This document shows positions 17,956-52,044 of a DNA stretch of 53,459 nt, in pieces. Source of the DNA: Candidatus Rokubacteria bacterium 13_2_20CM_69_15_1 (lineage in GTDB: Bacteria > Methylomirabilota > Methylomirabilia > Rokubacteriales > CSP1-6); contig MNCR01000102.1 in the NCBI GenBank assembly GCA_001914535.1, forward strand, positions 1 to 53,459, in the 5' to 3' direction. Numbering within the stretch: the first letter of the stretch is position 1; each line of letters opens with the position of its first letter. The notes under the pieces were generated by a model. The model was not told the origin of the DNA and did no database searches. It was given only the letters and a program-made list of their open reading frames with translations. The translations under genes were made by a program, and so were the position numbers.

Positions 17956-18534
17956 ATGGCCGGTCGAGCGCCCAGACTGCGCCGCGTGCGCCCGTCGGGA
18001 CGCTCCGTCAGGTTCGCGATCGTCGCGGCTCGCTTCAACGAGCGCATCACCGCGCGCCTCGTCCAGGGCGCGCTCCGGGCGTTCCGCACCGCGCGCCTCG
18101 CCGACGACGCCGTGGAGGTCCACTGGGTGCCGGGGTCGTTCGAGCTTCCGCAGGCCGCCGGTCACCTGGCCGCGACGGGGCGATACGCCGGAATCGTGTG
18201 CGTGGGCGTGGTCATTCGGGGCCAGACGCCACACTTCGAGCTCGTCGCGCGCGAGGCCGCGGCGGGGATCCGCCAGGTGGCGCTCACCACCGGTGTGCCC
18301 GCGACGTTCGGCGTGGTCACCGCGCTCAGCGAGGAGCAGGCGTGGGCGCGGGCGGGCGGCGAGGTGGGGAACCGAGGCGGGGAGGCCGCCGAGGCGGCGC
18401 TCGCGATGGCCGAGTGGATCAGCCGGCTGCGGAATGGCCGCGGGACCCTACGCCCCGCAAAGTCCGCGGGAGCGGAGCCGCGCGCGCCTCTCGCTGGCCA
18501 CCCACGCCTCTTGCGGCCTCGCGGCACCCGATAA
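17956..18534 (+). CDS. ribH: 6,7-dimethyl-8-ribityllumazine synthase with repeat-derived C-terminal extension
   Basis: ARFN, VPGSFELP, GVVIRGQTPHF, FGV, NRG.EAA; about 34 extra residues after the usual end. Confidence 0.93.
   Translation: MAGRAPRLRRVRPSGRSVRFAIVAARFNERITARLVQGALRAFRTARLADDAVEVHWVPGSFELPQAAGHLAATGRYAGIVCVGVVIRGQTPHFELVAREAAAGIRQVALTTGVPATFGVVTALSEEQAWARAGGEVGNRGGEAAEAALAMAEWISRLRNGRGTLRPAKSAGAEPRAPLAGHPRLLRPRGTR
18466..18534 (+). repeat. Junction repeat family copy fused in frame to the ribH 3' end
   Basis: GAGCCGCGCGCGCCTCTCGCTGGCCACCCACGC..CGGCCTCGCGGCACCCGATAAATG aligns with unit 25153-25221; reads EPRAPLAGHPR. Confidence 0.75.
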
Positions 18535-22355: not shown

Positions 22356-23861
22356 GTGAATCCAGACGACGCGAACGAGCTGATCCGCGAGCGGCGTGCG
22401 AAGCTCACGGCCCTACGGGCCAAGGGGGTCGATCCGTTCGGCGGCCGCTTCCCGGTGACCCACTGGGCGCTGCCGCTCGCCGACCGACTCCGCGACGCGC
22501 GCGACGAGGAGCTCAAGGGGTTCGGCCCCGTGAGCCTGGCCGGACGGGTCGTCGCCCTGCGCGACCACGGCAAGTCGTGCTTCGGCCACCTCATGGACTA
22601 CACGGGGCGGATCCAGCTCTACGCCCGTGAAGACCAGCTCGGCGACGACTACGCGCGCTTCACCGGTCTCGACCGCGGTGACTTCATCGGCGTCACCGGC
22701 GAGATGTTTCGGACCCGGACCGGCGAGCTGACGGTCGCCGTCAAGGCGTTCACGTTTCTCGCCAAGTCGCTCCGGCCGCTGCCCGAGAAGTGGCACGGCC
22801 TCCGCGACGTCGAGACGCGCTACCGGCAGCGGTACGTCGACCTGATCGTCAACGCGGAGGTACGGGCGATCTTCCTGCTCCGCGCCCGGATCGTGGCGGC
22901 GATCCGGACGTTTCTCGACGCGCGCGGCTTCCTGGAGGTCGAGACCCCGATGATGCACCCGATTCCTGGGGGCGCCATCGCGCGGCCGTTCAAGACGCAC
23001 CACAACGCGCTCGGCATGGACCTGTATCTCCGGATCGCGCCGGAGCTCTACCTCAAGCGGCTCGTCGTCGGCGGCTTCGAGCGTGTCTACGAGATCAACC
23101 GGAACTTCCGGAACGAAGGGATCTCGACCCAGCACAATCCCGAGTTCACGATGCTCGAGTTCTACCAGGCGTACGCCGACTACACGGACCTGATGGACCT
23201 GACCGAAGCGCTGTTCACGGAGCTCGCGCAGTCGGTCCGCGGGACGCTCAGGCTCACCTGGGGCGAGCACGTCATCGACCTCACGCCGCCCTGGCGGCGG
23301 CTCGGGTTCTTCGATGGTCTCTCGGAGGCCCTCGGCATCCGGGTCACGCCGGAGACCGACGCGGCGTCGCTCTCCCGCGCCGCGGAGGCGCGCGGCGTGG
23401 GCGCGGCCGAGGGGCCGCCGTGGAAGCTCTGGAAGGAGGTCTTCGAGCAGCTCGTCGAGCCGACGCTCGTGCAGCCCACGTTCGTCATCGACTTTCCCGT
23501 CGCGCTTTCGCCGCTCGCCAAGAAGAAGCGCGAGGCGCCGGCGCTTGTGGACCGCTTCGAGCTTTTCATCGGTCGGCGCGAACTGGCCAACGCGTATAGC
23601 GAGCTGAACGACCCGATCGACCAGCTCGCCCGCTTCCGCGAGCAGGCGCAGCTCCTCGCGCGCGGCGACGACGAAGCCCACTGGCTCGACGAAGACTACG
23701 TCCGCGCGCTCGAGTACGGCATGCCGCCGGCGGCGGGCGAGGGGATCGGCATCGACCGTCTGGTGATGCTCTTCGGCGACCTGCCGTCGATCCGCGAGGT
23801 CATCCTCTTCCCGCACCTCAGGCCCGAGGCCGGCCGGACGGGCGAGGGCGACGTCCCGTGA
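22356..23861 (+). CDS. lysS: Lysine--tRNA ligase (class II)
   Basis: OB-fold (AGRV..R..GK), [38 protein letters not shown]; GAGG before GTG 22356 (alternative GTG 22302). Confidence 0.97.
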
Positions 23862-25090
23862 GGTGCCAGCTGCCGTTCGAGCTGTTCCTCGGCCTGCGCT
23901 ACCTGCGCGCCCGTGGCCAGCGGACGAATTTGTCGCTCTTCGTGTGGATCGGCGTCGGTGGAGTCTTCCTCGGCGTGGCGGCCCTCATCGTCGTGCTCGC
24001 CGTGATGACGGGCTTCCAGGACGGGATCCGCGAGAAGATCATCGCGGCCAACCCACACCTGCTCGTCTATCAATCGGGCGGGGCCGGGCTCGCCGACCCG
24101 AGCGCGGTCGTCGCCCGGATCGCCGCGGTCCCGGGCGTCCGCCTGGCGACGCCGTTCGTGCACCAGCAAGCGCTCTTCACCACGTCGGCCGGCGGCTCCC
24201 ACGGCGGCCTCATCCGCGGCATCGACCTCCGCACCCCCGCGGTGGCCCGGGACATCGGCTCGCAACTGCGCAGCGGGAGCCTCGAGCCCGTCGAGCACGG
24301 CGAGGCGGCGATCCTTCTCGGGCGCGAGCTCGCCCGTGTGCTCGGCGTCCTGCCCGGCGACACGGTGACGGTGATCTCGCCAAAGGGTGCGCTCACGGCC
24401 GTCGGGATGGTGCCGAAGATGCGCCGGTACACCGTCGCGGGGACGTTCGAGGTCGGCATGTACGAGTTCGACGCCTCGTTCGCCTACCTCGCGCTGCCGG
24501 TGGCGCAGGAGTTCGCCGGGCTCGGCGGCGTCACCGGGATCGAGGTCAAGCTGGCCGACCCGTTCGACGCCAAGCGTGTGGGACGGGCGGTCGCCGGCGC
24601 GCTCGGGTTCCCGTACTGGGTTCGCGACTGGATGGACATGAACCGAAGCCTCTTCGCGGCGCTCCAGCTCGAGAAGCTCGCGCTCTTCGTGATCGTGACG
24701 ATCATCGTCCTCGTGGCGGCGTTTGCCATCATCGGCCACCTTGTCCTGCTCGTCGCGGACAAGCGCAAGGAGATCGGGGTCCTCAAGGCGATCGGCGCCT
24801 CACGGCAGTCCGTCGCCGTGACGTTCTTCGCCGTGGGGATGGGGATCGGTGTGGCTGGCACCGTCGCCGGGAGCGCCGTGGGTCTCTTGATCATCTGGGC
24901 GCAGAACACCTTCAAAGTGATCCGCCTCGCGAGCGACGTCTACCAGATTGACTACCTGCCGATGAAGCTGACGCTGTCGGACGGGCTCATGGTGGTCGGC
25001 GCGACGCTCTTTCTGTCGTTTCTGGCGACGATCATCCCGGCGCGCCGGGCGGGTGCCCTCGAGCCGGTCGACGTCTTGAGGTACGAATGA
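23858..25090 (+). CDS. lolE: Lipoprotein-releasing ABC transporter permease (single LolC/E, LolF-like)
   Basis: [55 protein letters not shown]. Confidence 0.92.
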
Positions 25091-25283
25091 AGCCACGGGC
25101 TCCTCTCTCAGGCCACGCCCGGTCCGACCCGGCCCCGCGGACCCCGATACAAATGAAGCTACGCGCGCCTCGCTCAGGCCACCCACGGTGTGCGTCGGCC
25201 TCGCGCAGCCCGATACAAATGAAGCCACGGGCTCCTCTCTCAGGCCACGCCCGGTCCGACCCGGCCCCGCGGACCTGGGTGGA
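25087..25283 (+). repeat. Three tandem 66-bp type A units of the junction repeat family
   Basis: Units start with ATGAAG at 25087, 25153, 25219; units 1 and 3 identical for 57 nt; in-frame 22-aa peptide repeat. Confidence 0.95.
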
Positions 25284-25287
25284 ATGA
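25087..25287 (+). CDS. Putative 66-aa mini-ORF built from three 22-aa repeats ([22 protein letters not shown]...)
   Basis: ATG overlaps the lolE TGA (ATGA); its own TGA overlaps the next mini-ORF ATG; translation not proven. Confidence 0.45.
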   Translation: MKPRAPLSGHARSDPAPRTPIQMKLRAPRSGHPRCASASRSPIQMKPRAPLSGHARSDPAPRTWVE

Positions 25288-25337
25288 GCCGCGACATGCG
25301 GAACGCAGCCGGGGCGCACCTCGTCTCGGGCCAATGA
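25284..25337 (+). repeat. Type B junction repeat copy, mini-[20 protein letters not shown]
   Basis: 25295-25333 is identical (39 nt) to 43831-43869; ATGA overlaps at both ends, the 3' one being the lolD start. Confidence 0.93.
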
Positions 25338-26029
25338 CCGAGCCGCTCCTGGTCGCCGAAGATCTCGAAAAGGAGTATCGCGCGGGCCCCGAGGTCGTGC
25401 GCGTCCTCCGGGGCGCGAGTCTGGTCGTGCGCCCGGGCGAGATCGTTGCGCTCGTGGGCGCGTCCGGCGTCGGCAAGTCCACGCTCCTCCACCTCCTGGG
25501 CGCGCTCGAGCGGCCCACCGCGGGCCGTGTCTTCTTCCGGGGTGAGGAGTTGTTCGCGCGCGGCGAGGCGGGGCTCGTGCGCTATCGGCGGCAGGACGTC
25601 GGCTTCGTTTTCCAGTTTTACAACCTGCTCGGCGAGCTGTCGGCGCTGGAGAACGCCATGATCCCGGCGCTCCTCCTGCGCAAGCCGTCGGCGGAGGCCC
25701 GGGAAATTGCGGCGGCGGCTCTCGCCGAGGTCGGCCTGGCCGACCGTCTCCACCACCGCCCGGGCGAGCTGTCGGGAGGGGAGCAGCAGCGCGTCGCGGT
25801 CGCGCGGGCTCTCATCAACGGCCCTAAGCTGATCCTGGCCGACGAGCCCACGGGCAACCTCGACCCGAAGACGAGCGAGATCATCTACGACCTGTTCGGG
25901 AGGCTCCAGGCGGAGCGCGGCATCGCATTCCTCGTCGCGACCCACAATCCCGACCTCGCGCGGAAGGCCGAGCGGGGGTACCGGCTGATCGAGGGGCGAG
26001 CCCGGGAGATCGACACGGGTGGCGGCTGA
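25334..26029 (+). CDS. lolD: Lipoprotein-releasing ABC transporter ATPase
   Basis: [19 protein letters not shown] (LolD-like motif), [23 protein letters not shown]. Confidence 0.92.
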
Positions 26030-42696: not shown

Positions 42697-43823
42697 AGAT
42701 CTCGGTCGTCGCCTTCGACCTCTCTGACAACGCGACCGGCCGTGCCGATCTGCTCGCCCGTCTGCTGGCCGCGCGCTGGGACGTCGAGGTCGTCGGCCCC
42801 CGATTCGGTCCGTCGCTCTGGAAGCCCGCCGAGGGCGGCCCGGTCAAGCACCGGACCGTGCGGGCGGGGAAATATCCAGGGTTTCTCCGACGGCTGCCCG
42901 CGCTGCTCTCGCTGGTCGACGGCGACCTCATCGTCGCGTCGAAGCCGCGCCCGACGAGCTACGGCCTCGGCCTGCTGGCCCGGTCACGGCGTCGGCGCCC
43001 GCTGCTGCTCGACATCGACGACTGGGAGCTCGGGTTCCTCTATCGGTCTGGGGTCTGGGGCCGCGTCGGCCGGGCGCTCGACCTCGCCGATCCCAACGGG
43101 CTCGCGTGGACATGGGTGACGGAGCGGTTGGTCGGCCGCGCAGACGCCCTCACGGTCGCCTCACGCTTCCTCGCCGAGCGCTTCGGCGGCGTCCTGCTCC
43201 CGCACGTGCGCGACACCGATGCGTGGGACCCGGCGCGTTACGATCCGGCGAGCGCGCGGGCGACGCTCGGCGTCGCCGCGGAGAAGGTCGTCATGTTTCT
43301 CGGCACGCCGCGGGCCTACAAGGGCGTGGACGATCTGGTCGAGGCGGTCGGGCTCCTCGGGCCGGGTGTGGTCTTGGCCCTCGTCGGCGCGAATGGGGAG
43401 CGCCGTGCCGCGGGACGCTGGGCGGCGCTGCCGCACGTGAGGGTTTTCGGCGAGATCCCGTTCGACGAGGTTCCGCGTTACCTCATCGCCGCCGACGTCG
43501 TGGCGGTGCCCCAGCGGGCGACGATGGACACCATCGGCCAGGTGCCGGCGAAGCTCTTCGACGCGATGGCGCTCGGGCGGCCGATCGTGTCCACGGCGGT
43601 CTCGATGATCCCCGAGATCCTCGATGGCTGCGGTCTCATCGTGACGCCGGGGGATCCGCGTGGGCTCGCGACGGCGATCCGACGCCTGCTGGAGCGCCCC
43701 GACGAGGCCAGAGGGCTCGGGGAACGCGCCCGCCGGCGCTGCCACGAGCGCTACAGCTTCCGTGCCGCCCGAGCGACGTTGTTCCCCCTCGTCGAGCGCC
43801 TGACCCGGGGATCAGTGAAATGA
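42693..43823 (+). CDS. Glycosyltransferase family 4
   Basis: DIDD, G....KG.DDL, PAKLFDAMALGRPIVST.V..IPE; GTGA overlap start. Confidence 0.87.
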   Translation: MKISVVAFDLSDNATGRADLLARLLAARWDVEVVGPRFGPSLWKPAEGGPVKHRTVRAGKYPGFLRRLPALLSLVDGDLIVASKPRPTSYGLGLLARSRRRRPLLLDIDDWELGFLYRSGVWGRVGRALDLADPNGLAWTWVTERLVGRADALTVASRFLAERFGGVLLPHVRDTDAWDPARYDPASARATLGVAAEKVVMFLGTPRAYKGVDDLVEAVGLLGPGVVLALVGANGERRAAGRWAALPHVRVFGEIPFDEVPRYLIAADVVAVPQRATMDTIGQVPAKLFDAMALGRPIVSTAVSMIPEILDGCGLIVTPGDPRGLATAIRRLLERPDEARGLGERARRRCHERYSFRAARATLFPLVERLTRGSVK

Positions 43824-43961
43824 GTAGCGCCATGCGGAACGCAGCCGGGGCGCACCTCGTCTCGGGCCACCCCCCGAAGGTGCCGGCCCCGCGGCGTCGG
43901 TGAAATGAATCGCGCGATGCGGAACGCAGCCGCGGCGCACCTCGTCTCGGGCCACCCGTGA
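43820..43961 (+). repeat. Two tandem type B junction repeat copies; mini-ORFs MSSAMRNAAGAHLVSGHPPKVPAPRRR (43820-43903) and MNRAMRNAAAAHLVSGHP (43905-43961)
   Basis: ATGCGGAACGCAGCCG(G/C)GGCGCACCTCGTCTCGGGCCA at 43832 and 43917 (85-bp period), the same as at 25296; ATGA overlap upstream, GTGA overlap downstream. Confidence 0.95.
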
Positions 43962-51976: not shown

Positions 51977-52044
51977 CGCAGCCCCGTGCGCCTAGAGCGG
52001 GCCACCCACGGTCCACGCCGACCTCGCGGACCTCGCTACAATAG
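51976..52044 (+). repeat. Type A junction repeat copy directly after the rluB stop
   Basis: ACGCAGCCCCGTGCGCCTAGAGCGGGCCACCCACGGTCCACGCCGACCTCGCGGACCTCGCTACAATAG aligns without gaps to the 66-bp units; reads (T/M)QPRAPRAGHPRSTPTSRTSLQ-stop. Confidence 0.85.

Follow-up and report, generated by a model that had tools for sequence, protein, structure and literature searches.

A MIRU-like repeat at the lolE-lolD junction of a Rokubacteria genome and its possible role in handing ribosomes from gene to gene

Typing makes wide use of mycobacterial interspersed repetitive units (MIRUs), which have been known since 1997. The portions of two publications on which we draw portray them as apparently mobile repeats that insert at start codons and contain an internal open reading frame (ORF) coupled to the gene with a spacing of -4 (PMC12548453), and as polycistronically transcribed units of 40–100 bp with imperfect inverted repeats, present in 40–50 copies, for which empty sites as well as filled sites with tetranucleotide direct repeats occur and whose ORF ends overlap the neighbouring genes (PMC3184786). 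The same portions mention short upstream ORFs that deliver ribosomes by termination-reinitiation in bicistronic designs (PMC12548453) and Rickettsia palindromic elements as repeats that are fused in frame into protein genes (Ogata et al., 2000, cited in PMC3184786). Here we analyze a 247-bp insert between a LolC/E-type permease gene (lolE) and a LolD-type ATPase gene (lolD) in Candidatus Rokubacteria bacterium 13_2_20CM_69_15_1, located in a stretch of 53,459 nucleotides (contig MNCR01000102.1 of assembly GCA_001914535.1; hereafter the window). We consider it probable (roughly 0.7) that this insert is a MIRU-like, frame-preserving intercistronic repeat which, judging by the arrangement of its start and stop codons, would be able to hand ribosomes from lolE to lolD, a gene without a Shine-Dalgarno (SD)-like motif.

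The lolE-lolD insert and its repeat family

The lolE ORF encodes 410 amino acids (aa) and ends in GAA-TGA. Its stop codon (25088–25090) is overlapped by ATG 25087, which opens a mini-ORF of 66 codons; ATG 25284, overlapping the TGA of this mini-ORF (25285–25287), opens a 17-codon frame, whose own TGA (25335–25337) overlaps ATG 25334 of the LolD-type ORF of 231 aa (Table 1). An earlier note on this stretch had reported these coordinates and the three ATGA overlaps, the division of the longer mini-ORF into three 22-codon units (A-A'-A) with 57 identical nt in units 1 and 3, and the motif AATGA at both ends of the insert, all of which was reproduced. Tandem Repeats Finder returned a period of 66 with 2.9 copies at 25082–25275, and a repeat search found three copies at spacings of 66 and 66 nt. 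Copies 1 and 3 share 98% identity over 62 nt, with the sole mismatch at 25085 versus 25217 and full identity over 25086–25143, and copy 2 is 76% identical to copy 1.

The insert belongs to a dispersed repeat family. The genome to which the window belongs (G000) is that of a soil bacterium, a fragmented Rokubacteria metagenome-assembled genome (MAG) of 2.8 Mb in 146 contigs, with 69.6% G+C and 76% completeness. BLAST with 25086–25337 gave 61 matches on many contigs of this genome, and an iterated nhmmer profile of the repeat core converged at 114 core units, which form 76 arrays (49 single, 18 double, 7 triple and 2 quadruple). Alignment of the copies by eye distinguished two main unit types around a common core of 58–60 nt, in which nearly invariant blocks such as GGCCACCCAC stand between variable ones. 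Type-A units measure 66 nt, sometimes 65, and have ATGA immediately before the core; their spacing, read by hand, was 66 nt in 10 arrays, 65 in 3 and 64 in 1. Type-B units measure 86 nt and possess a 27-nt 5' module containing GGAATGA. Four full type-B units follow each other at distances of 86 nt at C141:20016-20333 (contig and positions), and in a hand translation each of them contains a separate frame of 29 codons, the stops and starts of which overlap; a parallel GTGA chain is present there as well. At the lolE-lolD junction, three type-A units are followed by a truncated type-B unit, in which the distance from ATG to ATG is 50 nt versus 86 nt in full copies. Since the missing 36 nt are a multiple of three, the stop of the truncated unit still overlaps the next ATG. 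The earlier note had missed that the 17-codon ORF represents a second unit type in shortened form.

Units 1 and 3 of the lolE-lolD array have an identity of 0.95. The median identity is 0.87 within arrays (50 pairs) and 0.71 between arrays (6166 pairs), indicating that arrays grow by local duplication of units drawn from a dispersed pool. The proposal of serial insertions or duplications in the earlier note is thus borne out in part: the likeness of units 1 and 3 points to duplication, and an empty site in a relative together with short gaps in 54 of 77 loci (see below) points to insertion, but the units stem from a family with 114 cores in this genome, and unit 2 is as distant from units 1 and 3 (76%) as from copies elsewhere (nearest 0.81).

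ATGA at the end of a gene delimits many of the arrays, and copies off gene junctions have ACGG or ACGC at the position of the type-A ATGA. The window itself contains two single non-ATGA units between genes (18476–18532 and 51980–52037, with GCGG or ACGC before the core), neither of which is coupled to an upstream stop codon. Two arrays of the same genome with ACGA instead of ATGA lie within ORFs, one as three in-frame 22-aa repeats of a 605-aa ORF (C107:9520-9709) and one as the C-terminal part of a 101-aa ORF (C141:42678-42801), both in a frame that differs from the mini-ORF frame.

The near invariance of blocks such as GGCCACCCAC, together with the bias in orientation relative to transcription described below, would also be expected if the units acted as structured RNA or DNA elements of the repetitive extragenic palindromic/bacterial interspersed mosaic element (REP/BIME) kind, for instance as mRNA stabilisers, terminators or protein-binding hairpins, with the ORFs being incidental. 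Two minus-strand terminator-like sites at unit starts (25155–25171 and 25221–25235), each a weak hairpin followed by a T-rich run, would fit as well, and these alone could disfavour antisense insertion in operons. Nevertheless, we regard a structural role as very unlikely. The RNAalifold consensus of 112 distinct units was almost unstructured (-0.74), and the folding energy of 60 units equalled that of shuffled sequences (mean z -0.2, median 0.03); lacking both a consensus fold and excess stability, the units are not REP-like hairpins. A scan of 24800–25600 against Rfam 15 gave no match up to E 10, and the repeat search found no inverted arms at unit ends within 24900–25500, as would be typical for the terminal inverted repeats of miniature inverted-repeat transposable elements. 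The promoter and terminator scan of the locus returned no promoter-like site and four terminator-like sites versus 0.4 expected, two of them on the plus strand inside lolD and none on the plus strand of the insert. A Y1 transposase (REP-associated tyrosine transposase, RAYT; PF01797) was not found in the genome, which is 76% complete.

Of all explanations considered, we give the least credence to the mini-ORFs encoding functional small proteins. It would agree with the identical core frame of types A and B, which in hand translation reads as a serine-glycine-histidine-proline stretch, and with the mini-ORF frame having the fewest internal stops. However, copies differ from each other in blocks of 4–8 adjacent bases and not at every third base, and the 66-aa product matched no NCBIfam family, so that the peptides are unlikely to matter as proteins. 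Moreover, the coding-potential maximum of lolD starts exactly at its own ATG, truncated and length-variant copies are tolerated, and the same units are read in a different frame inside the 605-aa ORF.

Table 1. Features at the lolE-lolD junction, with positions in the window.
Feature	Position	Strand	Basis
LolC/E-type permease gene (lolE)	23858..25090	+	ORF list and best NCBIfam hit TIGR02212 lolCE
Type-A unit 1, 66 nt	25087..25152	+	Starts with ATGA holding the lolE stop; core hidden Markov model match 25091-25148
Type-A unit 2 (A')	25153..25218	+	76% identical to unit 1; nearest relatives at other loci (0.81)
Type-A unit 3	25219..25275	+	First 57 nt as in unit 1; 3' end replaced by type-B start
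Truncated type-B unit	25276..25333	+	5' module with GGAATGA and first core half; compared with full copies
Mini-ORF 1, 66 codons	25087..25287	+	ATGA overlap at either end
Mini-ORF 2, 17 codons	25284..25337	+	ATGA overlap at either end
LolD-type ATP-binding cassette ATPase gene (lolD)	25334..26029	+	Coding-potential start exactly 25334; no SD-like motif upstream
Left AATGA	25086..25090	+	ATGA is the shared tetranucleotide; leading A from the lolE GAA codon
Right AATGA	25333..25337	+	CAATGA is the usual unit 3' end

The two flanking genes, which would encode subunits of a LolCDE transporter for lipoprotein release, found their best NCBIfam hits in TIGR02212 lolCE (357.3 bits, cut-off 362.45) and TIGR02211 LolD (251.9 bits, cut-off 307.75). 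As both scores are under the equivalog thresholds, lolE and lolD are to be understood as the best available names. Upstream, a lysS-like ORF ends at 23861 and overlaps the GTG start of lolE (23858) by 4 nt (GTGA, 23858–23861), and this overlap represents the operon's uninterrupted junction of the coupled kind.

The stop/start relay across the genome

For comparison across the genome, genes were called by means of a simple model of codon usage that had been trained on this same genome (2766 genes, 90.6% coding). A strict relay was defined as a chain of 4-nt overlaps that uses ATG starts only and ends in the frame and at the stop of the called downstream gene; a lenient relay also admitted GTG and TTG starts and 1-nt overlaps. 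The control set comprised 590 repeat-free co-directional junctions with a gap of at least 40 nt. The strict test replaced a walk that allowed GTG and TTG starts and accepted any ORF of at least 100 codons as a gene, which 'reached a gene' at 141 repeat-free junctions and was therefore unspecific. Strict relays were found at 14 of 38 junctions with an array in the same orientation, versus 3 of the 590 repeat-free junctions (Fisher p 4e-16). As these three contain one mini-ORF each, the ATGA chain through two mini-ORFs at lolE-lolD is not a chance product. One further array among the 38 forms a direct in-frame fusion. Where the gap is smaller, a further six arrays are read as N-terminal extensions in frame with the downstream gene, and a further one as a relay.

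The ATGA chain is a built-in property of the repeat family, the consensus of which already contains ATGA, and not of the lolE-lolD locus. Among the 14 arrays with ATGA before the first core, the TGA is the stop codon of the called upstream gene in 12. Chains of two to five short ORFs occur in the family, with four consecutive mini-ORFs at C14:15426-15723 and three at C88:15333-15574. The window contains a second relay at 43815–43954, where two type-B units, the second of them truncated, bridge a gene ending at 43823 and a gene starting at 43958; the mini-ORFs of this chain have 27, 2 and 18 codons and overlap by ATGA or GTGA. The arrays are strongly biased in orientation, with 54 of 76 matching both neighbouring genes and 9 being opposite (binomial p 6e-9); the remaining 13 lie between genes on different strands or at contig ends. 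Behind same-orientation arrays, 8 of 47 genes had an SD-like motif near the candidate start, compared with 544 of 1040 among the other genes whose gap is at least 40 nt (p 1.6e-6; 77 genes without a candidate start were excluded, and starts and genes come from our own crude caller). At the lolE-lolD locus, the only SD-like motif precedes ATG 25087 (GAGG, contributed by the end of lolE), and the scan found none upstream of ATG 25284 or ATG 25334.

From these observations we derive the following scenario. The 247 bp at 25087–25333 were most probably inserted into a stop/start junction at which lolE and lolD formerly overlapped. Because the units begin with ATGA and are followed by ATGA again, and have lengths of 3n (66 nt, so that the frame continues) or 3n-1 (65 or 86 nt, so that the stop overlaps the next ATG), the family is built so as to preserve the hand-over between frames. 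A ribosome terminating at the lolE TGA could re-initiate at ATG 25087, translate the 66-codon frame, pass to the 17-codon frame and thereby reach the lolD ATG, and translation of lolD would in this case depend on the mini-ORFs. Such a relay would keep the insertion nearly neutral for the co-expression of LolE and LolD. In addition, ribosomes kept on the spacer might shield the operon against Rho-dependent polarity. In their sense strand, the cores are rich in C and comparatively poor in G (43% and 32%, versus 34% and 35% in lolE), and the genome encodes Rho (711 bits), so that an untranslated spacer would be expected to invite polarity and translation to prevent it.

Empty and filled sites, distribution and rival readings

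The earlier note had proposed a comparison of the junction across relatives, and this turned up both an empty site and inserts of other content. LolE homologues were present in 39 of 41 related genomes, and the junction could be read in 29 relatives. The congener G003 (locus L012) has an empty site, at which lolE ends in GAG-TGA and lolD starts at an overlapping GTG (GTGA). In the congener G002 (L010), a different insert of 136 nt is bridged by a single 46-codon ORF with ATGA at either end, whereas in G001 (L011) a 50-codon ORF within an insert of 207 nt stops 66 nt before the lolD ATG without an overlapping start. Accordingly, the inserts of the congeners differ in content and not simply in the number of units, and ATGA stands on either side of the filled site in G000 and G002. 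Among 80 named public MAG loci, labelled Rokubacteria, Rokuibacteriota, Methylomirabilota and in a few cases otherwise, 77 contain both genes. By hand count the gap is at most 10 nt in 54 of these 77, mostly with the motif TATGAGTGA, in which the lolD start lies inside the end of lolE; 7 have gaps of 11–90 nt and 16 gaps of more than 90 nt. In many relatives lolD starts 5 nt before the lolE stop, giving an 8-nt overlap, and since the relay walk is uninformative for such overlaps, short junctions were judged by gap length. The 54 short gaps and the empty site in G003 indicate that the overlapping junction is ancestral and was filled repeatedly.

At eight of the loci (L048, L049, L057, L058, L062, L071, L075 and L113), a different tandem repeat occupies the lolE-lolD junction, with an obvious G+C-rich inverted repeat; the junction motif, AATGAGTGA, is copied at the start of its units. 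It therefore seems that landings or duplications have recurred at this junction. A further stretch of about 48 nt that is unrelated to the repeat interrupts the repeat core at the lolE-lolD junction of both G001 and G002 and adjoins a core at another G002 locus (L135, G002:C6); perhaps this is another small mobile element, nested within the repeat.

Copy number also varies at sites other than lolE-lolD. The orthologous site at C84:23072 of G000 (23044–23131; L126 in G001 and L137 in G002) holds 1 type-B unit in G000, 3 in G001 and 4 in G002, and the relay is intact in all three species, whose downstream proteins are 88–90% identical; the site thus resembles a variable-number tandem repeat (VNTR). 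For a broader sample, 20 regions from three congeners were chosen by hits of the core pattern and not by ATGA, and these yielded 21 arrays, of which 5 form strict relays with 2–4 mini-ORFs each.

Within the genomes searched, the repeat family occurs in one family-level lineage only. Of 24 further genomes from the same Genome Taxonomy Database (GTDB) family, 14 gave BLAST matches to the insert, as opposed to none of 16 genomes from the remaining families of this order. In addition, 251 genomes of the phylum, including unpublished ones, were scanned for a 30-nt core pattern, with at most 2 mismatches allowed and the results counted by hand. At least 10 hits were obtained in about 60 of the 159 genomes of the GTDB family, with 84 in G000 and a maximum of 176, compared with at most 5 in each of the 92 genomes outside the family; the reversed pattern as control gave 0–5 hits per strand and at most 7 per genome. 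The carriers include G011, which was also BLAST-positive and is the source of L019, and G112, and the rest include G074 and G235.

In a fragmented MAG of 146 contigs, copies from elsewhere may be misjoined into a junction. In four public runs, represented by short Logan contigs, the contigs break within the repeat and provided no joints, no empty-site variant and no unit count, and the depth there is inflated by other copies. Still, an assembly artefact at lolE-lolD seems highly improbable to us. Run X1, which may be the source sample, contains contigs without differences that cross from lolE into unit 1 (24965–25115) and from the type-B tail into lolD (25304–25477); in runs X3 and X4, which belong to other studies, the stretch is tiled with 1–5 differences, and two congeners have repeat-derived inserts at the same junction. 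Loose contig ends behind 25333 continue as in full-length type-B copies. A contig from the RNA run covers lolE up to 25096 only, starting at 24858; such contigs cannot show a transcript.

A more serious competitor, to which we concede a limited but appreciable likelihood, is a selfish repeat that prefers ATGA targets. The overlap chain would then be an unselected by-product of tetranucleotide duplication and fixed unit length, and lolD would initiate independently. This agrees with the ATGA flanks of the filled site next to a single overlap at the empty site, a configuration that resembles the tetranucleotide direct repeats at filled MIRU sites in the consulted part of PMC3184786, and with the broken relay at the same junction in G001, the absence of a strict relay from 23 of 38 junction arrays and the many copies off junctions with ACGG or ACGC in place of ATGA. 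On the other hand, the TGA of the ATGA variant nearly always serves as the stop of a gene (12 of 14) and non-junction copies have ACGG or ACGC, the short type-B unit differs from the full one by a multiple of three (50 versus 86 nt) so that the register is kept, the relay persists through 1, 3 and 4 units at the orthologous site, and the downstream genes mostly have no SD-like motif (8 of 47 have one).

Several observations weigh against the relay that we favour. The break in G001 indicates that the relay is not obligatory, and the same-orientation arrays without a strict relay are in the majority. Among the 21 congener arrays 7 break, and 9 have no upstream gene on the same strand ending at the array. 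The ATGA on both sides could represent a target-site duplication, with the relay as by-product of insertion. Lenient chains are common in this G+C-rich genome, occurring at 57 of the 590 repeat-free junctions. The SD comparison inherits the crudeness of the gene caller, and the deficit of stops in the mini-ORF frame of 106 cores (4, versus 19 and 8 in the other two frames) is a weak signal from small numbers. The argument for protection from Rho derives from base composition and the presence of the rho gene, and the unit number at lolE-lolD is unconfirmed by the short public contigs in a MAG that is 76% complete. In the light of these points, two statements of the earlier note need to be narrowed. 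Its view that the consecutive overlaps are unlikely by chance applies to the strict chain through two mini-ORFs and not to lenient chains, and it describes the family rather than the locus. The excess of strict relays would fit the suggestion that insertions were retained only when coupling of the two subunits survived, but G001 and the 23 arrays without a strict relay speak against it.

The relay may be extended to a bolder reading, in which the units are 'translationally transparent' mobile cassettes that target stop/start overlaps, their copy number serves as an evolvable dial for subunit ratios such as LolE:LolD, and Rho is kept off the spacer. If this were true, each additional termination-reinitiation step would lower the share of ribosomes reaching the downstream cistron. 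We consider this version rather doubtful.

Comparison with known systems

With REP/BIME sequences and REPINs (REP doublets forming hairpins), the Rokubacteria units share that they are short, G+C-rich, dispersed intergenic repeats that often lie inside operons. They differ in having neither a palindrome nor a stable hairpin and in being arranged in direct tandem instead of inverted pairs; furthermore, REPs and REPINs are mobilised by RAYTs, of which no Y1 transposase was found in the 76%-complete genome. To our knowledge, REPs carry no start or stop codons in register. Some Rokubacteria copies resemble Rickettsia palindromic elements in lying within ORFs as in-frame 22-aa repeats (C107:9520-9709), but this is a minority fate here (two arrays examined), the typical site being a stop/start junction. 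The likeness to bicistronic designs, as far as these are covered by the excerpt we used, is that a short ORF ends in a stop overlapping the start codon of the gene served, which makes an SD motif there unnecessary; in Rokubacteria, in contrast, a mobile repeat provides the short ORFs, of which two to five can follow one another in a chain.

Among titles and abstracts, we found no paper describing such a repeat family in Rokubacteria or Methylomirabilota. The family would be a second, independent one of the MIRU design. The roughly 60 carrier genomes offer ample natural material, in which sites are filled or empty, copy numbers vary and relays are either broken or intact, for testing whether selection keeps the stop/start hand-over across mobile insertions in operons. 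For annotation, the results imply that small intergenic ORFs in these MAGs are repeat-borne and that some downstream genes may receive false N-terminal extensions.

The closest likeness is to MIRUs, as these are depicted in the portions of the literature cited at the outset. Both consist of short units that number in the tens per genome and frequently form tandem arrays between genes within an operon; both take the orientation of the flanking genes and contain small ORFs that overlap the upstream stop and the downstream start (-4), and both show empty and filled sites, a tetranucleotide on either side and a copy number that varies between relatives. In the Rokubacteria repeat, size and dispersal are seen in units of 65/66 and 86 nt, 114 of them in 76 arrays, mostly between genes. 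Overlap and orientation are seen in the excess of strict relays (14/38 versus 3/590) and of matching over opposite arrays (54 versus 9), although not for every copy. The lolE-lolD junction is empty in G003 and filled in G000, G001 and G002, and 1, 3 and 4 units occupy the orthologous site at C84:23072. The Rokubacteria repeat differs in its host phylum (Rokubacteria/Methylomirabilota) and in apparently being a sequence family of its own, with two unit types that share one core and with ACGG or ACGC copies off junctions. Neither inverted repeats nor a stable fold were detected in it, whereas imperfect inverted repeats are ascribed to MIRUs in the part of PMC3184786 that we consulted. By its design, the Rokubacteria repeat may therefore be likened to a MIRU, as an analogue in an unrelated phylum that appears to work in the same manner.

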